The notes under the pieces were generated by a model. That model did not search any database. It worked only from the letters and a program-made list of their open reading frames with translations, and had not been told where the DNA came from. The position numbers and the translations under genes are program-made. A stretch of DNA of 63,522 bases, filler included, from Reclinomonas americana ATCC 50394 (taxonomy: Eukaryota): NCBI GenBank assembly GCA_048213135.1. It is 5 parts of 3 records of this genome, joined end to end, with 100 filler letters (N's around TTAATTAATTAA, not from the genome) between each part and the next. Parts side by side here need not be neighbours in the genome. Positions count along the whole stretch, not along the records: positions 1 to 10,718 come from PS015167.1; positions 10,819 to 15,788 come from PS015168.1; positions 15,889 to 38,508 come from PS015168.1; positions 38,609 to 57,914 come from PS015168.1; positions 58,015 to 63,522 come from PS015169.1. The stretch is one strand, 5' to 3'. This document shows, in pieces, positions 3,001 through 63,522 of this stretch (the stretch's first letter is position 1; every line of letters starts with the position of its first letter).

Positions 3001-6000
3001 CGGTGTGTGGGGCGCGAGTGTGTGGCACAGAAAACGCAACTCGGGAAGAACTGGTACGAGTTGCCGGTAAAAGTGGCCGTGGTAGCCACGCCCGTCAGCG
3101 CCATCGTGAACGGACCGGTGGACATGTCGAGCGACGTCGCCGTGGTCACCACCGCCTTCGGCAGCGTGATGGTGCTCGACAAGGCGGTGCTCGCCGCCGT
3201 AATGGCCACCGTGTTGCCACTGATGCTCACCGCCGGTGCGGCGGAGCCGAGTGTGATGGTGGCACTCGCCGCCGTACCGAGGTTGAGGGCCGTGCCGGCA
3301 TTCAAGTTGATGGTTCCCGGGGCGGTGGTGGCATCGATGGTCACCGTCGGTGCCTTCAGTGTCGCCGTATTGCTGGTGCTATTCAGGGTCAGCGACAGCG
3401 CCGTGGCCGAGTCCACCAGTTGAATCAAGTTGGTCGACATGGTGAGCTTGGACGGCGTGGCGGCAGTGCCCTGCTCCAGCGTAATCGACGAGGTGGGATT
3501 GTCGGTCGCCTTGAGCAGAATCGTCTGACCGCGGCCCGTCAGCTGCTTCGTCTGAGTGGTCGAGTTGCCGCTCAGTGTCACGCTGTTGGCGCCGTACAGC
3601 GACATGTCGTAGGTGCTCATCTGGATGGTGTGCGTGGCCAGCGTCACGCCCGTGTTGACGGTGAACGACGACATGGTCAGCGAGCCAAAGGTGGACGACG
3701 CTGCATTCATCGAGTAGGCACCCTGCGAGAATGGACAAAAAGAAAAAGGAGTGAGTTTGGAGGAGAAACTAAACGCGAGGCGGAAAAAAAAGGAGCTCAC
3801 CGACAGCGTGCCAGTCAGGGCGGTACCCAGAATGTTGAGGGCGCTGGTGGCCGAGCCGAGGGCCAGCGTAGTAGTCGGTGTGAGATTCAGCGTGGTCGGG
3901 TTGTGTGTGTGGGTTGTGCCGCCCACAGTGGCCGTCGTGGCCGTCGCCGTCAGCGTACCGATGGTGGCGGTGAGGCTGGTGGCCGACGTGAGGGTCAGCG
4001 TCGGCAGCACCAGCGTCGACGCACCACTGGCCGTGACTGAAATGGACGTGGATGCAACAATCAGCGAGCTGACAAGCGAGTTGCCGATGCGGATCGTGTT
4101 GGTCAGCGAGTTGCCGAGCGAGTCCAGCGTGAAACCAAGGTTGAGCGACGTGCCGTCAAACACAGTGGTCGTGCGACCATACAGACGAACGTCGGAGCAC
4201 TCGCCGTAGAACGGCGCCACAGTGCCACCATTGTCCATGCGGAAAACGCACGTGCCGGAGCTCGTGCCACGAGTGAGCACAAAGGTGCCCGGGGTACCCG
4301 GTGTGCTCGTGGCCGTCAGTCGCATGCTGACCTGATCAGTGCCCGTGCCAGCCAGCACATTCCACGACGTGCCGGCGGCCACCGTGCCGGCGCCCAGGTT
4401 GGCGGTAAAGGTCGGAATCGCACCGGTGCCACCGAGGGTCAGCGACGTGGTTGCATTGTGCACGAGCACCGGCGAAGTCGACGTCATGGACGTCCCCGAC
4501 GTGATGGCCAGCGTGTTAGTCGTGCTTGCGCCCTGCGTGCCGACGACAATGTCGGGAGCAGAGAGCACGGCAGCGGTGCCGAAACGAGCGTCCAAGTTCG
4601 CCGCACGCATGTTGACATTGGTGCTGGTGGCCACGCCGAGAGAAATGGCTCCCGAGGTGGAGACGGCCAGCGACGCCAGGTTCATCGCATACGCGCCGCC
4701 GGTAAAGGTGGCAGAGGTCGCCGCCGCCAGCGTGTACACCGGCGACGTGATGGTACTTGTGTCCGAGGTGACCGTAAGCGTCGGCGCCGTGAGGGTGGCC
4801 GAGCCGGCACCGCCGAGTGTGCCAATGGTTGCCGTCAGCGTGCGCGACGTCAACGTCGTGGCAGTCAACGATGCGCTGCCAATGTTGATCGCCGTCACAG
4901 TCGACTGACCGAGACGCAGTGTTCCCGGCGTGTCCACCGTGAGGGTGCTGAGCGCAAGCAGCGAGGCCTGCGGGTCACACACAGACCAAAGAGATTAGTT
5001 ACCGAGACAATGGGGAGGGGGGCGGGGGAGGACAAAATAAGGAAGAGACGAACCGAAAGGTTGCCGGTGGAGGAACCGAGAACGAGGTTGCCGTGAGTGC
5101 CAGTGCCGACACCTTGGCCGGCACGCACAGTCAGGTCGGCACCGTTGGCGTTACCGGCGGCCGCCGGTCGGTCGGGACGCTGCACGGTCAGAGCCACAGC
5201 GAAGTCGTCGTGCAATTGCAGCGCATTGCCGCCGCCTCGCATGCTGACAATCTTGCCAGCTTGAATGTCAATGTTGCCATCGATCTGTGCCACAAAAGAA
5301 AGAGTGAGGCGATGAACACGCAAATGGCAAAGGGGCGCGCCGACAAAACTGTCGTCTGCGGCGAGTAGATGCGCGTCAACGTGGAGGCAGTTGTGCTGCC
5401 AATGCTGACTTCGCTGGCCACAAACGTGCCAATCTGCACTTTGCCATTCGTGGTCGTGCCAGTGCCAGCGTCAAAGCCACTGCGTGATAAAATGGAGAGT
5501 CAACATCAGAACAGTGACAAGAAATGGGAGGAAGAGGATGACAAGTGGCACGACGCAACATGTCACCACCGACAGTGCCAGCAGTCGATTGGCCACGGTA
5601 GTAGGTCGGCGAGCCGGCAAAGGTGTTGGTCGTCTGCGTTTCGCGCTCCATCACAAAGGTCTTGGAGACGACGCCGCCACCATTGTTGCCGAGCGCCACG
5701 CGGTGAGTCGAGTCCAGCGCGCTGAGACCCGGATCGAGGCGCACAAACGATTGCGCCTGCAGAGTCAGAGTGGTCGCGGAGACCACCGACGTGGAGGTGA
5801 AGCCGCCAGAGAGTGTGGTCAGGCCGGTCACAGTCAACGTGCTGCCCAGTGTCACGCCCTGGTTCACTTGCAGAGTGCCGAGGACTGTGGTCAGTGAGCC
5901 GGCGCGACTCAGATTCACTCCAGTCACTGCACTGGCGCCCATGGTGACACTCTGTATAGGCATGAATTAAAAATGAGTGACATGACTTGGATGGAGAATA

Positions 6001-52135: not shown

Positions 52136-55100
52136 TCACCCTCACTCTTGCATTCTCCAGCTACCGCCCCAACATGGACGAGAACCAGGAGGTGTCCTTC
52201 CCCGGTGCTCGTTCGCTCCGCGTCCGCTTCGACCCGCAGTGCTGCACGGAGAACAACTACGACTACCTCGACATTTTCCTCGACGTTGCTCACAGTCGCC
52301 AGCTGCACGGCCGTCTCACCGGCGCCACGTTCCCTCGCGAACTCGTTCTTCCCGGCGACCGCGCCTGCTTCTTCTTCCACAGCGACGGCTCGAACGAGAT
52401 GTGGGGCTACCGGTACGTGAGCTGTGTGTGGTATCGCGTGGAGTCGATTGCTCACTTTTCTCCTCGTCGCGCAGTGCCACTATCTCGCCCGAGATGCCGC
52501 AGACGGTGTTTAAGGACACGCCACTGGTTGTCGACTTGCTGTACATGCTGAGCACGTTGAGCGCGACGGTGAGGGACAATGGCACTTCGTTTTTGTGGAA
52601 GGAGCAATCTCAACTCACTTCCTATTTTCTCCATCCGTCAGACACTTCGCCGTGCCATGTCGTCCAGCGCCAACCAGTTCGACGAGTGGCTCACGTTGCC
52701 GTTGTTCAGCGAGGGTCTGCCGTCCAAGTTCGAGGGCGAGGAGGCCGAGGAGCGCGAGTTCCTCTTGGGCATTGTCAATGTGCGCCAAGCACACGCACAT
52801 TGTCTCCTTTCTCGTGTGACGGCGAGCTGACGTTTTGCATCGCAGGGCACGGGCGACGGCGGCAAGCTGTTTGACTCGCTGAAGGGCACGTGCATTGAGG
52901 AGCGCATTCTCGACAAGTACGATTCCGTGCACCGCTGTGTGCGCGCCACCTACGCGGCGCTGCTGAAGCACCGCAAGTTGGTGACGCACGCCATGCGCGG
53001 CACAAAGACCCCCGACCTTGTCAACTCGTACAAGAAGGCACACCGGGTGAGTGTGGGAAGCAGGAGAGGAGCGCGACAATTTTACGTGTTTCTTGTTGTG
53101 GTCTCACACTCTGCGCACACACAGTTGCGCAAGCTGCTCCAGCAGCGCCACCAGCGCACTGACCTGTCGCTCTCGCTGGAGGAGTCGTACGCCGCGTTCT
53201 GCGAGCAGTTCACTGCCCGCGCGCTGCTGGTGCTCGATCTGCGCAGCCGCAGCAATTTGCTGGCTGTCGACGATGAGGCCGAGGCGCGCCTTCTCGAGTC
53301 GCCGACCAAGGGCATGGTGGTGAGTGATCTGTTGTGCACACGGCACTTCTTCCGGTTTCCCTTAGCGATTGTCGTAGGTGTCACCCGCGCCGCCGGGCAA
53401 GTCATACGGTTGGAAGGTGCTGCGTCGCGCAGTGCAGAACATTCGCATGACCAAGGTCCGTGCTGTCGACGTTGTAGTTGTTGTTGTTGTGATCTACTCG
53501 ATCGTCTGACGTGCTTCCCTGCAGCTTGCACGCATGTTTTCGCCCCGCATGGTGGCCGGGCAGAACAAGAACAACGACCTTGTGGAGTCGCTGACGACCA
53601 ACTTGCTGGACTTTATCTCGAGCGAGGCGGACGCGGCTGCCATTCGCAAGGAGATCAATTCACGCTCGGATCGCGCCCTGATCCGCACCATGGCCTTTGA
53701 CCACTTTGCCGAGGTCATCGGTGCCGCTGGACGTGGCGAGCGCATGCTGGCCTGCCTGCTTTCCGAGTGGTTGGGCGACGTCGTCAACGACCGCCACTAC
53801 TTGGAGGGCATTGGAGTGTGCGACGTGGCGGTGGCCGACGGCCTGCAGCGGTCGTACCACCACATGATTCGCCAGCTTCTCTCGTCCCCAGGTTTGTGGA
53901 GATTGGGGAGAATCGAGAGTGTTGCTGCTCTCCCTTTGATGCTCAACTCTCTTCCCGCCTCTGCAGCATCGAGCATTCTCTACCTGACGCCAGTGTACCA
54001 TCAAGTGGTCACCAAGCCGGCGGAGTTGCCGGTGGGCTTGCGACACTTGTCGCAGTTCTGCAGCTGGGACTCGCTGCGTCTCCTGTCGGGCCCGTGGGAG
54101 ACTCGCGACTTCCGCAACCTCATGGTGCTGCTCGACGGCGTGGCAAATGCATACGTGCTGCCGACGGGCAAGGTCTGTCGCGAGTGTGCGGTTGCGTCGA
54201 AAGGCCGCACTTGTTGCTGATTTGAATATTCTTCGTTGCAGGACTTCAGCTTCGGCGAGCGCCTGCGTCTGATGATGCCGTCGAGCTTGTCGACCATCAA
54301 CGAGATTGCCGACAGCAGCCGCGAGGCTGGCGTGACGTCCGTCACTGGTACGCAGCATTGTGGTCGCAGTGCATTTTTGTGGAAGTGGTCTCTCACCGCG
54401 TATTCTGTTCCCCGGTGTGACAGCCGCCAGCGTGCAAGAGTCGGCGCAGTTTGCCCTCAATGTGCTCTTCATGCTCTTCTCGGCCCCCATCCAGGGTCTG
54501 CGCAGCGCCGACCGGAGCGAGCGACCTGATGAGACTGGTGTGTGTATGTGTGTGTCACACGTGTGTATTTTCACACGTTGCTGACGCACGTGCTCGCAGC
54601 CTTCTTGGAGCTCATGTCCGATGTTGTCTTCAACGAGATCAACGGTCTCCTGTCGGCTCCGGGCACGTTCAAGTGTTGCGTTTTGTGACGTCTCTCCCTC
54701 CTTCCCTCTCCTCCTCTCATTCGGATGGCCTCCCTGCGCAGCGAGCTCGATTCCCGAGCAGGTCTTCGAGGCCGCGCAGATGCTTGTGTCGCTCTCCAAG
54801 TCGTCGCAGGACATTGATCTGGCGGAGCGCATGACTCGCTTCGCGTCCGGATCCATGCAGAACTTTGTCATGGCCAACGAGCGCCGATTGACCATTGTTG
54901 TGCGCCTGATTGAGAGCCTGAGCAGTTGCGTTCGATTCTCATTTTTTCCACCGTGTATTGCTGATGAGCTGACGCGTGCGTATACTCGCAAACAGCGAGC
55001 ACGGATGAGCGCGATGTTCACATCCTCACTCTCGCTCTCAACCTGTTCCGCCGCATGGTGCCGCTCATGGGCGGTGCGCTCTGCCATCCTTGCATGTTCA

Positions 55101-57865
55101 GTGTCTCAAACTTCAACCTCACGTGTCGATTTGTTTGCTCTGCAGCCTTCGACGTGGCAAACGCCATGCAGTCGATGCGTGGCGTCAGTGGACAGGAGAG
55201 CCAGCACAGCGCGCAGATTGTGTTGCGCTGCCTGCTCTACGACGTGGCCAATGGCCTGCCGCCGTTCATCAACGAGGGTGCGCGCGCGCGCACGCGGTTG
55301 TATCAATTGCATGTTTGCTGACATTGTCCTTGGTTATTGCCGTTGTGCAGCTCGCGAGTCTTCTCGTGCCGTGCGCTACACGAAGGCTCAGCTGTACGTG
55401 TCGCTGCTGCGCTCGTTGCTGAAGAACAAGTTCTGGGGAGACGAGGTAAATAGTTTTTGGCTGCACTCTGTGCCTCGGCTATCACTCTTGCTAACCTGTG
55501 TTCCTCCCTTTTTCACAGCTTGTGGTCCTTGTTGACCAGCTGTTTGCGTCGTTCACCGCCGACGTCGCCTCCTGCACTCTGTCCGAGTTCAGCAAGCTGA
55601 CGGCTGCTGCTCTGTGCGTCATTGGAGGCTACTGGCTGGTGCCGGTGGTCAGCTCCACTGTCGCGGTGCCGGGCAAGGGACGCGCGTGTGTCACTGCCGT
55701 GCCCGACCAGACCAATGTGCAGTGCGTGGTCTTCTCCGATCCGTCGGCCGAGATCACCACCGATCAGTTCGAGGTGCTCCCGAAGGTTTGTTTGTCAGCG
55801 AAGTGGGATGCGGCCATTCACAGCAAACTCTCATACTATTGCCTTCACTGCCCTCCTCTGCAGGAGAGCGTCTCTGCTACGGTGTTTGGCCGCCTGCCGC
55901 ACTTGGTGCCGATGGTGCACGCGCTGGTGCAGCAATTCTGCACGGCCAAGTTCGATGCGGCCTCACCCGATTACATTCTCACCGAGGGCGATTCCGTGTT
56001 CCTCTTGTCGTACTTGACTGCCGCCGGTCTCAAGGCGCTGGTCGAAGTCCTGCCCGACAAGCACTTCTCGCTGGTGGAGCTCGTCACTCGCACCGGTGTG
56101 GAACTGAACAGACTCCTCCCTTTTTTATCCTGCAAGACGCGTGTCGCTCACACGCAACTTCTTTCATTTTGTTTGTCATCTCTTAGACATTAAGCTCCTG
56201 GCGCCGGTGTTGGCCGCCGCCGACAGCCGCGCGTTTGTGCCCTCGTTTGCGCAAGAGTGCGATGTCCGTCTGCGCACGCAGTTCCTGCAACAGGTCGCCG
56301 GTGAGACCATGCTCATTGTGGACACTTTTCCCCTTTCCATTGTGCGCTGATGCCTCGTCCTCTGGCAGATGTGGTGGACGCCAAGGCCGCCGCTCAAGTG
56401 CAAGAGGTGCTGACTACTCTGGTCAAGAAGCGCGCTGCTGGTGGTGCCGCTGCTGCTGCGGCTGCTGCTGCCGCTGAGGATGCGCTCGAGTCCCTGCCGC
56501 TCAAGCAAGTGCTCGTTGCGTGCATGCTTCCCGCCTTTTCTTTTCTTTTTCCGTGTCGTGTTGTGCTTAATTGTCACGTGTGCGACAGGGCGACGAGCCG
56601 CGTCCGGAGGGTGCCGCGGCAGTCACGATCAAGAGCTCTGGTGTGCCGTCGTACGTCAAGGTGCCGCCCAATTTCTGGAAGGTGCAACCGCTCGCGGCCG
56701 TCGCCTCTGGTGGCTCGTCGAAGCGTTACAAGACGCGCGAAGACTTCCCGACGAAGCAGGACTACCACACTTATGTGATGGAGCGGTGAGTTGGATGTGC
56801 TGTGACGGACGACGTGTGTGTGTTTACTGACGGGGGTTTCTTTTCGCTTCTGCAGAGTGCGCATTAACATGCAAGTCGAGTCGCTGAAGAACAAGCCGTG
56901 GGCGCCGCTTGGCACCATCGGTACTGTGCTGCGCATCGACACAGACATGACTCCGCTGCGCGTCATTGTGCGTACCTGTCAGTGCTTTGTTTGCGCGCTA
57001 TGTCGCCGAAGCATGAAGACGCTGACATGTTGCTCTCTTTGCAGTGGCAAGGAACCAACGAGGAGCGCTGGCACCGTACGTGGCACGTGCGTCTCGTGGG
57101 CGACGAGGACGGCGACGCTGGCAAGATCAAGAAGCACAAGACGTTTGCCGAGTTCAACTCTGATGTGGCCGAGTACCTGCGCTACCTGCGCTCGCACTTG
57201 CGCCCGCAGATGCGCGTGCAGGCCACGTGCAGTCGCGAGGACAAGTACACTGAGGGCGACATGGGTGCGTGTACCGCTGTTGTTGTTTGTTGCTGTCTTT
57301 GTTCTTGTTGAGCTGTCTTACTTAACATGGTCACACGCATAGGCACGTGCGCCAGCTGCGATCTGAATGATGACAATCTGCCGTACAGCATCCAGTGGGA
57401 CCGTTGCGTGTCCGTCCGTCTGTCTGTGCTCTCACCGCTCCACTCGCTTCGCTAACTAGCTGCAATGTCATGTCGCAGGCGGCGAGACGACTTGGGCCAA
57501 GGCCGAGCACATTCGCATTGTGCTGGAGGGCGAGAACGACCCGGACCCTGTGCCGGAGCCGGAGCCGGTGGTGAGCTCTGCCGCCGCTGGTGAGGCCGAG
57601 GCAGCGAATGCGGAGCTGCAGGAGGCACTGGCCAGTGTTGAATCACTGCTCGGACAGCTGGACGACGCCACGCGCGCCAACATTGTGCGCCTGTTCCAGG
57701 CACAGAGTGCTGCCGTGCTGCGCTCGCGTGCCTACATTCTCACGCTTCTGCGCCACTGGCCGAGCGGAGTGCCGTTCAACCTGGAGGTGCTCGGCATTGC
57801 GGATTGGGAGGCGTTCTGGAGCAGCATCAGCAAGGCCACTGCCACGGCGTTCGAGTACGATCGCG
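47377..57865 (+). CDS. Giant HERC2/ZZEF1-like probable E3 ubiquitin ligase fragment with two CUB-like and two tandem CPH domains (both ends missing, about 40 introns)
   Basis: CUB-like 1: ETEHPYPNSLDKDWAVVFEGAKEIEITYDERCATELNFDYLQL...FYFHSDGSNNDWGFK. CUB-like 2: ETPHNYRPNMDENQEVSFPGARSLRVRFDPQCCTENNYDYL...FFFHSDGSNEMWGYR. A HERC-like VRATYAALLKH segment is present, and CPH-like YKTREDFPTKQDYHTYVMERVRINMQV is followed by a second copy. No HECT domain is seen because the gene is truncated. Confidence 0.72.
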
Positions 57866-57914
57866 GTGAGTGGTAGAGACACGTCGCGGGCGCACATGTT
57901 GTGTGATTATTTCC

Positions 57915-58014
57915 NNNNNNNNNNNNNNNNNNNNNNNNNNNNNNNNNNNNNNNNNNNNTTAATTAATTAANNNNNNNNNNNNNNNNNNNNNNNNNNNNNN
58001 NNNNNNNNNNNNNN
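57915..58014. other. Artificial contig linker
   Basis: N44-TTAATTAATTAA-N44. Confidence 0.95.
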
Positions 58015-61000
58015 GACTGTGGCGAATCCCCTGTGCACCACGGAGGCGAGATCTGGAACGACATGGTGCTCGATCTGAGGCCAGCGTCGCCAGCAAAGGA
58101 GTGAAGCGACACACTGCGGAAGAATGCATCAAAACAACTGCGTTAACAATGGTGTACTGTGGGTTCTTGTCAGTGAGCTTTGCGTCGACTGGGAATGATG
58201 AGTGCCTCGAGACTCATGAATGGCCGCTCCACCAGCAAGTACAACAGGTACGACCCGACGTAAGCGACGAATATGGCACCGCAGCACTCCACCGTGATTG
58301 CCTGCATGTAAGAGAGAGTGTCAGCAACCTCTCCGCACACACAGTGACCGCTGAATGGCGCGTACCGGAATCGAGTACTGCACAGTGAACAAAAGACATT
58401 CAGTCACAGTGCGGAAGACAAGAATGCACCGAGTATTGCTCACCTCGAGGAAGTGTGTGCGCATCGAGTACGACATCTGAATCCCTGCGAGCAAGAGGAC
58501 AAGATGAGTGATGCACACGGTACCGGCGGTCACACCAATATACAGACGCACAGGCCGGATGCAGCAGGTAGGCGCCGTACGTGAGCCGTGCCAGTGGTGT
58601 CCAATATTCTGCACATCACACGCAACGTCAACATCTTACCACGCAACCCCACTTGACACGCAACAACTCACCCGCTGACAGGAATCGACGCCACAGATTC
58701 GTCACAATCACGAACCGGAACGAACTGCGCCAAGACAAGTATCTGCATCAGCGTCTGCGTAGACGGAGGAGAAGAAGCGTGTTCGAGACTTGCCTCTTCT
58801 TCACGCTCTCAATCATCAAGTACAGCATCACCGCCAGCGCGAGACACCAGGCCGGACGACTGAACGTAATGTACATGACCTGGTGGTAGCAACGGCGATG
58901 ATGAGAGAGATACAACACGCATCAGAAACTCTCGCAGCGACGAAACATTGTTGATATCGCCCGGCGTCCAGTTCTGACCCAGTGACTCGTACAGATTCAC
59001 CGGACCAAAGACGCACGCACCAAACACCGCAAAGCACGCCAGGTACAGCAGCCAGTGCACCGCAACCACCGACCGCGACTCGGAGGTTTGTTCGGCTGCC
59101 AGCTTGCCGGTGCGGAATGCCTCCAGTTCACGCTCACGCGCCGCTTCACGCTCGTGCAGCACAAAGGCCAGACCCTGCAAGAATGACGAAGAGTCAGCCA
59201 CACCCTTCCCACCATTGACGAACAGAGATAAACGCACCACGCCAACCAGGTACGCGGGAACTCGGGCCCACGGTCGAGCGTAGTAGTAGTTCCTGCAGCA
59301 AGCAAAGAAAATGGTCTGTTAATATCATGGCAGCGTGAGCCAGCACCATAATTGCACATACCAGTAGTCGTCATTGGGAGCAATCACATAGAACCACAGT
59401 TGCTTAAAGTGCACCACGAGTGCCTGGCCCACCGAAGAAATGAGCAAACATCGACTCCACATCTGATTAGCAACCACAACTCACCGACGACAAGAGGCTG
59501 CCAAACATCACCACTCCAACCAACGTCCAACCCAACCACCGTCGACGAGCGTACGCGAACAAGAAGATCGGTGTAATGGCAAACGCCCAAAAGTCACAGG
59601 CCAGGTACCTGTGCAGGTGCGCGCAGGCACTCAGAGGGTTCACTCGCAGACATTGTACACGAGAGCGACGCATGCGCACCACACCCATGGAACGCATTGT
59701 GTGTCAAAGTCCCAAGGATAGACCGCATTGAGGAAGAACAACAGTGGCTGCCGACACAGACGAGAGTCAGCGTCGCATGATGTGGCGCAGTCAGCAACCA
59801 CAACGACTACAACCAACCGTCCACCAATACTTGGAGCATCCAGTATCATAAATCGTCTGATACTGAGACCAGAACGGTCCATCGCCCACGTAAGGTGTCA
59901 GCTGTGAAAACAACGACGACGACGGTGGAGATGAGCTCCAAGATGCTCACCAGCACCAAGCTTTCACACTTGGACGTTTACCTTCCACACCACAAAGATC
60001 ATCACCGCCAGACTCGGAGTCAGTCGCCAGATGCGATGGAAGTAGTACAGCAGCAGGTTGAGCGATCCACGCTTCGGTGGTTCTGTAGGACGACAGCAGG
60101 AGTGTCAGCTGAGGATCTCGTCAGTGGTGAAAGCATACGAGAGATCAAACCATCCAGTCGCTGGTGTGGCAGCAGGGCACCGAGGGCCAGATGCGCCACC
60201 AACAGGCCCGACAGCATGAAGAATGTGTCGACCGCGAATCTGTGTGCATGACTGTAAGAAGGGATCGACAGCACTGTCTGGCATGTTCGCGACACGGAAC
60301 TCAGCTGCAAACAGCAACGTATGGGTGAGTACGATTCATGACACTCATGAGGAAAACACAAACCACTCACCGCCAGCAATAATCGCGACAGGCCACTGCG
60401 TGCCGAACCCTCCCGGCATGAAAACAGACACCACATTATACACGAAAGCGAGTGCTTCAGACTGCGCGTGTCCAAGAATACTGGCATCACGAATCGGTCA
60501 GCTGCATCTAATCACAGAGAACCAGCACGCATTCGCAGCGTCGTCACACGCACATCCAGAACATGGACAGCACTCGAACACCATTCAGCACTTTCAGTGA
60601 CCGATCCGGAGACGGAGCGAGAAGCTTTCGTGTGTTTGTGATGGCCGACCATGACAGGAAGAACGTCTGCAGAATGTCGGAGCACGACCGCCGTGGCTTC
60701 TCCAGCTCTGATTCACACAAGCACACGCACACTGTCACACGGGTGATGGAGAAGCAACATGCATCATCAAGGTGCAGACGGAACCTGGCAGCTGATACAC
60801 GATATCTTTCCCCGATCCCTGCACCGAGTTGGAGTGCGGTCGCCGACGAGTCTCGCCGGTGACCGATGAGAAGTAGCCACTCGTCGTCCCTGCGCGAAGA
60901 CAAGAGAGTTGGTCAGTAATTTGTGGCGACTTCTTGCGCAACCGGGCCCGGCGCACCGTTGCTTCCGAGCAACAGGGAGGTCTCCGTTGGCGCTGCCTGC

Positions 61001-62020
61001 AAGAGAGTGTGAGGAGAGGCAATCTGATTTGACATGTGCGAGTGCGACAGTCCACGTAACAATGCTGTGGGCAGCCGACGACGAAGAGGATGGACTCGGC
61101 CGCGACGAAAACAGATCGACCAATGATCCTGCTCGGTGCACGGGGTGAGCATGACTGAAGAGAACATGCATTACTCTTCACACACACACACACGCACCAA
61201 TCAACACCAGCGTGCCGAGACCGGCCAGCAGTACAATGGCACCTCGTGCTTCACGCGGCAGTGTGTGGACGACCTGCTCGTCGGTGCACGACGCCGTGAT
61301 ACTGCGAACCGCACACGTAGTCATAGATCAGTCAACGCACGCCACATGCAGCAGCGACGACTGGAGAGAAGAAACGCAACGCAGAAGCGGGAATCGGGGT
61401 CTTGGGGAACAGCAAACTGATAAACTCGGCTGCGGTGGCCGGCAGCGTCTCGGAGGTGCACGATCGCGGCACACACATGCCGATCATGGGCTACAAGGCA
61501 GCTTATAAGAAGCAGCGTGCACCGGCGACCGCAAGTACTGCACACACGCACCGGAACCGTCGGATTAACTTTCACCGTCACCAGGCAGTAGTGCGCCGAC
61601 GGAGTGAGATCGGGCTGGATGCAACGCTTGTAGTCGCCTGTGACGAATGAGAGACAGGTGAGCAGCCAGAAGCGGCAACGTTTGATGGCAACGCGAGGCA
61701 CCTGCATCACGCGGCGGAGATTTGCCGGTGGACTCGTACAGCTATTTATGTGCAGATGAGGTGAGCATGACAACGGTGAGGGGGGAAGGGAGAGCAGCTG
61801 AAGCAGCAAACCATGGCCTCAGCACCAGGGTAGCTGTGCTCGTAAGTGAGACGGAGTTGCATGAGCATGCGGCGGGTGAATGCATGCATGCACACACAGA
61901 ATGCAACAGACGCAACGTTCCGGCAAGCACTGCACCCCAATCATCTTCACACTTGTCAGCATGGACAGCCGCTGTCACGCACACCAACACCACCACCACG
62001 ACAGCGAGCGTGACCCGCAT
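58015..62020 (-). CDS. NRF-6/OACYL-like membrane O-acyltransferase (acyltransferase family 3 with N-terminal NRF domain); 3' end missing
   Basis: Signal peptide MRVTLAVVVVVLVCVTAAVHA. NRF-type segments GDYKRCI...HYCLV...MIGMCVPRSCT. Acyltransferase segments LKVLNGVRVLSMFW, FAVDTFFMLSGLL, YYFHRIWRLTP and CVPWVWYLACDF. Confidence 0.85.
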
Positions 62021-62182
62021 TGCGGCTCCGCACGACGGCGATGACAACGAACATGTGCAGGACAATCGCTTTTACATCGCCGTCCCTCTTCTCTTTTCCA
62101 CGCTTCGCCTCACTCGTCCCTCCTTTGTTCTCTCATTACGCGAGTGATCATTTCTTTTTCTTGTTGGTGGCATGTGGGGTTT

Positions 62183-62198
62183 GGCGCTCATAAGCGCC
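62183..62198 (-). promoter_or_regulatory. Candidate histone mRNA 3' stem-loop downstream of H4
   Basis: The minus strand reads GGCGCT-TATG-AGCGCC followed by AAACC. This gives a 6-bp stem opening GG/CC, a closing U-A pair and a 4-nt loop with U at positions 1 and 3. Confidence 0.55.
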
Positions 62199-62366
62199 AT
62201 TGAAAGAAAATAGAAAGGAGTGCAGCCGCCAAGAGGGAGGCACGCAGTCACACCACCGATAGGGGTGTGCACGTGTGGGCCCGTGCCCTGCAAGTGGCCG
62301 CCAACAACAGCAGCCAGAACTGAAGGTTGATGTTGTTGTTGTTGTGGAGTGGTGGGTGATGATGAT

Positions 62367-62702
62367 TTATCCACCAAAGCCGTAGATGGTGCGGCCCTGG
62401 CGCTTGAGCGCGTAGACCACGTCCATGGCAGTGACGGTCTTGCGGCGGCCGTGCTCGGTGTAGGTCACAGCGTCGCGAATGACGTTCTCGAGGAAGGTCT
62501 TGAGCACGTTGCGGGTCTCGTCGTAGATGAGGCCCGAAATGCGCTTGACACCACCACGGCGCGCCAAGCGGCGGATAGCCGGCTTGGTAATGCCCTGAAT
62601 GTTGTCACGGAACACCTTCTTGTGGCGCTTGGCGCCGCCCTTGCCCAGGCCCTTGCCGCCAGAGCCGAATCCCTTTCCGCCGCCCTTTCCGCGTCCAGAC
62701 AT
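62367..62702 (-). CDS. H4: Histone H4 with 8-aa N-terminal tail insertion (111 aa)
   Basis: [57 protein letters not shown]...[13 protein letters not shown] probable 5'-UTR intron lies at 62715-62795 (GTGAGC...GCAG on minus). Confidence 0.98.
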
Positions 62703-62795
62703 GCTTGCTTGTTACTGCACACACAGGGAGGGAGGGAGAGCATGAGCAACCACATTCAAGCGGTGGGTATGGAGGAAGTGACGAGCTTCGCTCAC

Positions 62796-63070
62796 CGAAG
62801 TGATCAGAAAAATCTGTGAATGAAAGTGATGGGAGATTGGCGCCAAATGAGTGGCAAACCGATTTCCCGCCTTCCACATTCGGATTCCCAAGAGGGGTGC
62901 ATCTCCGCTCATTGCACCACACATCCGTCGACCTGGGGTTTGCTGATCTCACCCGTTTTCTCGTGTTCCCCGTGAGCAAAGGTTGGTCGCCCCCCCTTTT
63001 CTCACACTGCTGTGTTTCCCCCTCGCACTCATCCCACGCGCACGCACACAGTCAACTACTCTCATTCATC
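62796..63070. promoter_or_regulatory. Bidirectional H4/H2B promoter with two E2F-consensus sites and a CCAAT box
   Basis: TTTGGCGC on minus at 62840-62847, TTTCCCGC at 62863-62870 and ATTGG at 62836-62840 all lie between head-to-head histone genes. Confidence 0.45.
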
Positions 63071-63522
63071 ATGCCGCCGAAGACCGCTGCTAAGGCCCAG
63101 AAGGCCCCCAAGGCCGTGAAGAGCGCCCCCGCGTCCAGCTCTGCTGACAAGAAGAAGAAGCAGAAGAAGCGTGTGGAGACCTTCTCGTCCTACATCTACA
63201 AGTTGAGTTTTCCCTCGCTCACTCTCTCGTCAAGTGTGCATGTCAAACTGACCTTGTATACAACAATAGGGTGCTGAAGCAGGTGCACCCCGACACTGGT
63301 GTCTCCAACCGCGCCATGAACATCATGAACTCGTTCATCAACGACGTGTTCGAGCGCATCGCCAACGAGGCTTCCCGCCTGGTGCGCTACGGCAAGACCA
63401 AGACCCTCTCGTCTCGCGAGGTCCAGACTGCCGTGCGCCTCCTGCTGCCGGGAGAGCTGGCCAAGCACGCCGTGTCCGAGGGCACCAAGGCCGTCACCAA
63501 GTACACCAGCAACGCCCAGTAA
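63071..63522 (+). CDS. H2B: Histone H2B (one intron, 63202-63269)
   Basis: [17 protein letters not shown]...[11 protein letters not shown] / [37 protein letters not shown]...[11 protein letters not shown]. The intron runs GTTGAGT...AATAG. Confidence 0.97.

Follow-up and report, generated by a model that had tools for sequence, protein, structure and literature searches.

The window analysed here, a 63.5-kb stretch of DNA from Reclinomonas americana (58% G+C, 4212 N), is very rich in introns (about 100 predicted). They are probably true GT-AG introns of the U2 type, among which a second class of 5' splice site, N/GUU(G>U,A)(C>A)GU (the slash marks the cut), is also abundant; this class would be read through pairing with U1 shifted by one nucleotide, with the cut set by U6, U5 and Prp8. 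Between roughly a quarter and a third of the window's introns seem to belong to this second class, hereafter the shifted class. The original prediction for this stretch had pointed to frequent donors starting GTTGCGT or GTTGAGT; this observation is confirmed, and it is stronger than was stated at the time.

The window comprises five pieces, placed end to end and joined by spacers of 44 N + TTAATTAATTAA + 44 N, so that adjoining pieces are possibly not neighbours in the genome. Genes were modelled using a two-strand hidden Markov model (HMM) with GT..AG introns, self-trained codon usage and intron composition; a second version added a learnt branch and acceptor signal. This donor-blind HMM was ignorant of the donor from +3 onward and of the base at -1, and it predicted 105 introns, mostly of 53-110 nt, with a CT(C/G)A(C/T) branch motif and a (G/A)CAG acceptor. 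A donor-aware pass, for which donor matrices were learnt from the blind pass and the -1 base was never an input, predicted 115 introns. Donors reading GTNNGT (GT at +5/+6) are referred to as ordinary, and donors reading GTTNNGT (T at +3, GT at +6/+7) as shifted.

The commonest donor heptamer chosen by the donor-blind HMM was GTTGCGT, with 17 of 105 introns versus 0.51 expected from 7962 GT sites (p = 6e-21). After the donor-aware pass, the shifted class comprised 32 of 115 predicted donors (about 28%), of which 21 were exactly GTTGCGT. The heptamer occurs 39 times in the window (25 on the plus strand and 14 on the minus strand), 27 times in sense and five times in antisense to predicted genes, with seven copies unassigned (binomial p = 1e-4). 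The more general GTTGMGT was observed 51 times, versus 24.34 ± 5.02 times in 100 dinucleotide shuffles (shuffle maximum, 37); its observed/expected ratio is 2.07 in the window and 0.49 in a crude composition control of 15 unrelated metagenome loci from GC-rich eukaryotes (135 kb). T at +3 predicts GMGT at +4 to +7, a link proposed earlier for testing: among the blind donors that have T at +3, 18 of 44 continue with this sequence, versus none of the 61 others and 10 of 610 non-donor GTT on the sense strand. Members of the class beyond those listed before were found at 5559(-), 14573, 15347, 16994, 27502, 34822(-), 38239(-), 38322(-) and 61380(-), and additional donors of the GTTTCGT type at 14266, 48598, 51159 and 58946(-).

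The two classes differ at the last base of the exon. In the donor-blind models, G occupies -1 at 23/33 ordinary and 3/25 shifted donors (Fisher p = 1.3e-5), and in the donor-aware models at 38/49 (78%) and 3/32, respectively (Fisher p = 7.7e-10), which bears out the earlier statement that ordinary donors mostly follow G and shifted donors mostly follow another base. Compared with an exon background of 30.5% G, the shifted class is depleted of G at -1 (p = 0.005), and A is in excess there (12/32 vs 18%; p = 0.008). When the blind donors were split by the -1 base only, GTTGCGT was present in 16/58 after a non-G base and in 1/47 after G. A T at +3 is not decisive by itself: the GTTTGT donors also have one but belong to the ordinary register, and all six retain G at -1. 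The GTTTCGT donors (four members) all lack G at -1.

Furthermore, ordinary hexamers have twins in the shifted class: GTGCGT and GTTGCGT, GTGAGT and GTTGAGT, GTTCGT and GTTTCGT, GTACGT and GTTACGT, GTGTGT and GTTGTGT, GTGCGC and GTTGCGC, and GTGCGG and GTTGCGG. Together with the contrast at -1, these twins support the original proposal that G/GTGMGT and /GTTGMGT represent one motif, i.e. that shifted donors are the same heptamer as ordinary donors, cut one base upstream.

Apart from the heptamer's second position, the one-base difference in the cut, the -1 base (G in 78% of ordinary donors) and the next two bases (GA about as frequent as GC at +3/+4 in ordinary donors), introns of the two classes are alike. 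Median lengths are 71 and 70 nt; the branch site (CTSAC; learnt motif C/T-T-C/G-A-C/T) has its A at a median distance of 22 nt from the 3' end in both; and CAG acceptors are used by 28/32 shifted and 43/49 ordinary introns, the remaining shifted introns having two GAG and two TAG. Every member of the shifted class starts with GT. Shifted introns use the three phases evenly (8, 9 and 8; blind), which identifies GTT as a signal and not as a codon. The intron architecture as a whole is very uniform across the window, with a modal length of about 70 nt and the branch A at the same median distance.

The position of the cut was fixed by homology or by an internal repeat for five donors, i.e. 63202 (histone H2B), 34822, 38322 and 38239 (FAM91) and 49930 (CUB repeat); for the remaining members the reading frame is given by the HMM alone. 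Removal of the H2B intron at 63202-63269 yields YIYK/VLKQ, as had been claimed, and the relatives P0013-P0017 and P0053 are contiguous at this point (relatives in the H2B protein search were at most 90% identical). In the FAM91 gene, the exon upstream of the GTTGCGT donor at 34822(-), which the HMM had missed, ends at position 120 of the FAM91_C profile and the next exon begins at position 121. At the FAM91 N-terminus, joining the two conserved exons directly by GT-AG breaks the frame. A micro-exon of 16 nt (38240-38255, minus strand), lying between introns with the donors GTTACGT (38322) and GTTGCGC (38239), repairs it and adds six residues that take up positions 64-69 of the FAM91_N profile, between 63 and 70. 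The adjoining FAM91 intron, with an ordinary G/GTGAGT donor, is likewise continuous (profile position 101, a split codon, then 103). The Pfam matches of this gene are strong (1e-7 to 9e-11), the weak single-exon ones being at E = 0.075-0.09; a search of representative proteins with the FAM91_C exon returned two weak partial matches only. For the CUB gene, repeat 1 spliced at 49930 aligned without gaps (score 192) to repeat 2, which lacks this intron and is encoded in a single exon; a GC donor 3 nt downstream left a gap of one residue (score 176), and the HMM donor at 49960 a gap of ten residues (score 171). Pfam scans at 61380, 58946 and 32259 yielded no domain positions from which continuity could be judged, and the upstream CUB exon gave no CUB match when scanned by itself.

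The 22 sites listed in the original prediction all carry the heptamer (17 GTTGCGT, four GTTGAGT and one GTTGCGC), and one of them (51333) is preceded by G. As donors, 14 were predicted exactly by the donor-blind HMM and 16 in the donor-aware pass; 49930 was added by the repeat alignment, and local models are plausible for 30128 and 32259, whereas no supported intron was found at 26830, 30314 and 21993(-).

The pattern across both classes is a single heptamer, G-(G/T)-T-N-N-G-T, with the cut at whichever GT is present, as would be expected from the shifted register known for rare human sites (Tan et al. 2016). Shifted donors correspond to G/GUNNGU with U replacing G at the second position; the cut falls at the only remaining GU, one base upstream, and the intronic G+1 occupies the place of the exonic -1 G. 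For recognition, we propose that the 5' end of the host U1 small nuclear RNA (snRNA) would pair with both heptamers alike, in shifted donors one nucleotide off the usual register relative to the cut, and U6, U5 and Prp8 would then fix the cut at GU. This shifted register would differ little from one with U bulged at +2/+3.

Several points weigh against this proposal. A human-type U1 5' end pairs only weakly with the shifted class in every register (mean -1.80 vs -6.67 kcal/mol for ordinary donors; the host U1 may differ), and among the minimum-energy duplexes with this U1, 6/32 use the shifted pair G+1:C9 and four use C8. At +4/+5, shifted donors have GC and GA in a ratio of 21:4, versus 13:14 at the matching positions +3/+4 of ordinary donors (p = 0.009), a preference opposite to that predicted from pairing with a standard U1. 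The flanks beyond the heptamer are misaligned, with G at +7 in 20/33 ordinary and T/C at +8 in 21/25 shifted donors. Weak duplexes, GC preference and misaligned flanks together suggest that the host U1 may differ, or that a second form of U1 may exist. In addition, all junctions are based on gene models and homology, and the sample is one 63.5-kb window in five pieces with about 100 introns; a single gene supplies 10 to 12 members of the class, and the 34 of 115 HMM donors in neither class include mispredictions, so that the class fractions are approximate.

A second U1 variant (e.g. changed opposite +2), another small nuclear ribonucleoprotein or a protein might serve as a dedicated recogniser, with full complementarity to GUUGCGU, for introns without exonic G; the standard U1 would read G/GUNNGU, and the major spliceosome would then run two parallel systems. 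The near-invariance of the heptamer, the excess of GC over GA and the very weak pairing with human-type U1 (-1.8 kcal/mol) would be accounted for, and human variant U1 snRNAs are described (PMC3561869, PMC10870369). We nevertheless consider such a recogniser rather unlikely: the variants of the shifted class are those of ordinary donors (GA, TC, AC, GT, and GCGC/GCGG ends), as expected from one recogniser in a shifted frame, and no snRNA gene was seen within the 63.5-kb window, where neither an Rfam family above threshold nor a tRNA was found. If instead the extra U at +2/+3 were bulged, U1 and U6 would read GU(U)GCGU as GUGCGU in normal register, keeping G+1:C8 and U+2:A7 and allowing U6 to pair with G+6/U+7 (reasoned from the registers in Tan et al. 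2016). Human sites of the validated bulge +2/+3 register (Roca et al. 2012, via Table 3 of Tan et al. 2016, PMC4856993; 68 predictions among 201,541 5' splice sites, 54 after curation) resemble the shifted class in having an extra U after GU followed by an ordinary +3 to +6 sequence. With a bulge, however, the pair between the -1 G and C9 would be kept, and this G would be expected at background frequency or higher, which is not the case; its depletion and the excess of A are more in keeping with a shift than with a simple bulge at +2/+3, and we regard such a bulge as unlikely.

That the boundaries are misplaced, the real cut lying at a GC donor 3 nt downstream (GTT/GCGT), at a TT..GG pair or at a nearby GT, appears highly improbable. 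A cut 3 nt downstream would preserve the frame, and the H2B mRNA is identical for GT-AG and TT-GG placements; however, GTTGAGT, GTTTCGT and GTTACGT offer no GC at +4/+5, the even use of phases leaves GTT without a role as a conserved codon, and a GC donor introduces an extra residue into YIYK/VLKQ of H2B and a one-residue gap into the CUB repeat, disagrees with the contiguous FAM91_C positions 120 and 121, and lowers codon scores by 13.05 nats over 21 sites. The TT..GG placement mostly fails, as G follows the acceptor in 10/25 introns only. Equally, we see hardly any chance that these introns constitute a mobile family (introner-like elements) from which the heptamer was inherited and not selected. 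A uniform 5' end common to many short introns of like length is what such a family would leave; intron interiors, however, resemble each other no more inside the class than across classes (local alignment score 5.97 vs 5.79 on average; maxima 11 and 14), and between the paralogous introns at 44296 and 46435 only the heptamer and the 3' end have stayed alike. Shifted U1 pairing with a cut set by U6/U5/Prp8 remains the reading that we prefer.

A second donor class within one genome is also known for U12-type introns, whose donor motif is RTATCCTT; the window donors do not conform to it, and their branch site and acceptor are those of ordinary introns. Non-canonical U1 registers, which were demonstrated with minigenes, are known from a minor share of human splice sites. 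In the human shifted-register sites (Roca & Krainer 2009, in the account of Tan et al. 2016, PMC4856993), every base pair with U1 moves by one position without displacing the cut from GU, and, as in the window, a donor starting with GU fits the consensus only when slid by one base. Unlike the window class, these sites are rare among the 201,541 human 5' splice sites. For non-canonical registers of all kinds together, the predicted share of these human sites is 5.1% (Tan et al. 2016). The motif also differs, being GUUGCGU in the window and of GUCAAGU type in the test oligonucleotide described by Tan et al. 2016. Genes of Andalucia godoyi, for which 134 introns have been verified (Gray et al. 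2020), are described as mostly intron-free, which rules this species out as the source of the window. A literature search, supplements aside, retrieved no report of a GTTGCGT-type donor class, and nothing on jakobid snRNAs or nuclear splice signals. The introns and donors of the shifted class, including candidates, are listed in Table 1.

Table 1. Shifted-class introns and donors, motif-only sites and spacers in the window (listed, site of the original prediction; new, site added here; blind and aware, donor-blind HMM and donor-aware pass).
Feature	Position	Strand	Donor	-1	Length (nt)	Basis and remarks
H2B intron	63202..63269	+	GTTGAGT	A	68	homology; also blind
FAM91 intron	34757..34822	-	GTTGCGT	A	66	FAM91_C 120/121; new
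FAM91 intron upstream of micro-exon	38256..38322	-	GTTACGT	T	67	in frame, FAM91_N spacing
FAM91 intron downstream of micro-exon	38185..38239	-	GTTGCGC	A	55	in frame, FAM91_N spacing
CUB-gene intron, N gap inside	49930..50358	+	GTTGCGC	A		listed; gapless repeat alignment
Intron	2960..3040	-	GTTGCGT	A		listed; blind
Intron	5480..5559	-	GTTGCGT	T		new; blind
Intron	5285..5349	-	GTTTTGT	A		blind
Intron	10177..10254	-	GTTGCGT	A		listed; blind
Intron	14266..14335	+	GTTTCGT	A		blind
Intron	14573..14641	+	GTTGCGT	C		aware only; blind uses GT 5 nt downstream and other acceptor (14578-14655)
Intron	15347..15431	+	GTTGCGT	A		aware only
Intron	16994..17077	+	GTTGCGT	C		new; blind
Bub1 donor after Mad3_BUB1_I exon	27502..27508	+	GTTGCGT	T		blind; 3' end within N run 27734-28292
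Bub1 intron candidate	30128..30198	+	GTTGCGT	C	71	listed; local model with branch site, positive coding score; missed by HMM
Bub1 intron	30575..30649	+	GTTGAGT	C		listed; aware
Bub1 intron	31176..31241	+	GTTGAGT	T		listed; aware
Bub1 intron candidate	32259..32491	+	GTTGCGT	A	233	listed; local model; rival GTTGAGT at 32421, same acceptor
Intron, tandem paralogue a	44296..44365	+	GTTGCGT	A		listed; blind
Intron, tandem paralogue b	46435..46498	+	GTTGCGT	A		listed; blind
Intron candidate, long, less certain	48598..48924	+	GTTTCGT	A		blind
CUB-gene intron	49530..49600	+	GTTGCGT	C		listed; blind
CUB-gene intron	49757..49833	+	GTTGCGT	C		listed; blind
CUB-gene intron	50851..50914	+	GTTGCGT	C		listed; blind
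CUB-gene intron	51159..51231	+	GTTTCGT	A		blind
CUB-gene intron	51333..51392	+	GTTGCGT	G		listed (exception at -1); blind
CUB-gene intron	51579..51652	+	GTTGTGT	G		blind
CUB-gene intron	51769..51836	+	GTTGCGG	A		aware; blind uses GTGATGT 6 nt downstream
CUB-gene intron	51987..52160	+	GTTGCGT	A		listed; blind
CUB-gene intron candidate	54191..54241	+	GTTGCGT	G	51	aware only; blind uses GTCTGT at 54173
CUB-gene intron	54675..54741	+	GTTGCGT	T		listed; blind
CUB-gene intron	54925..54995	+	GTTGCGT	A		listed; blind
CUB-gene intron	56515..56588	+	GTTGCGT	C		listed; blind
CUB-gene intron	57403..57478	+	GTTGCGT	C		listed; blind
Intron	58880..58946	-	GTTTCGT	T		blind
Intron, gene with weak NRF-domain match	61302..61380	-	GTTGCGT	C		new; blind
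Intron candidate, long, uncertain	61638..61916	-	GTTGCGT	C		aware only
Motif only	26830..26836	+	GTTGCGT			listed; intron models all negative-scoring
Motif only	30314..30320	+	GTTGCGT			listed; no short-intron model under 90-nt open-flank requirement
Motif only	21987..21993	-	GTTGAGT			listed; poly-K read-out only
Spacers	10719-10818, 15789-15888, 38509-38608, 57915-58014					44 N + TTAATTAATTAA + 44 N each

Of the gene labels attached earlier to these introns, Bub1 is supported by a match to Mad3_BUB1_I (E = 3.7e-21). The large plus-strand gene at 48.9-57.9 kb, previously described as E3-like, shows CUB domains only, with no E3-ligase domain in the scanned exons. It has 35 predicted introns, nine (blind) or ten (aware) of which start with GTTGCGT, consistent with the quarter estimated before. 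This gene is truncated at 57914 by the end of the piece and contains an internal duplication (49601-50572 and 51837-52410, plus strand); by eye, from the flanking peptides, each CUB repeat begins right after a GTTGCGT intron in apparently the same position (49757 and 51987). A protein search with one exon of this gene gave no match, nor did one with the Nucleotid_trans open reading frame.

Tandem paralogues at 42966-44700 and 45272-46700 (plus strand) seem, by eye, to conserve their donor types intron by intron (GTGAGTG, GTGCGTC, GTTGCGT); the exons flanking their introns at 44296 and 46435 are about 90% identical by alignment reading. The label "PH" for these genes is unconfirmed, since the single exon scanned (46501-46689) had no Pfam match.

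The window ends with a divergent histone gene pair, H4 at 62370-62702 (minus strand) and H2B at 63072-63522 (plus strand), of which H2B runs past the window end. The H4 gene is intronless, and its product is identical in 110 of 111 residues to a protein of the jakobid Reclinomonas americana derived from expressed sequence tags in EukProt, which places the window near the jakobids; its N-terminus carries an unusual stretch of 17 residues. A metagenome scan with H4 retrieved 80 loci, every one an ordinary H4 gene from other eukaryotes; their use was confined to the composition control.

At 1-10718 (minus strand), a very large gene encodes a repetitive protein rich in Thr, Ser, Gly and Ala, possibly a surface or adhesion protein, with no Pfam match; a second gene for a repetitive, Cys-containing protein is located at 13.2-17.4 kb (plus strand). 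A probable intron of about 60 nt at around 58610-58669 (minus strand), which starts with G/GTGAGT and ends with GTGCAG, has three more copies of GTTGCGT inside, spaced 17 and 21 nt apart, perhaps as decoys or duplicated donors. Simple repeats border several gaps in the assembly: a long (CTT)n microsatellite (27606-27712) lies beside one of them, and runs of (CT)n or (GT)n beside others; the commonest 7-mer in the window is TCTCTCT (348 copies per strand).

If it holds, the shifted class would bear on whether an intronic G can replace the exonic G at -1. Gene finders trained on matrices of ordinary donors give low scores to T at +3 and to C at +5, and may misplace at least a quarter of the introns in genomes of this kind. 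If the proposed reading is true, this system would provide a test case for separating the recognition of the 5' splice site by U1 from the choice of the cut by U6, U5 and Prp8, and it is of clear interest for specialists in the evolution of splicing: in a free-living protist, a non-canonical U1 register would then underlie one of the major donor classes, used constitutively.

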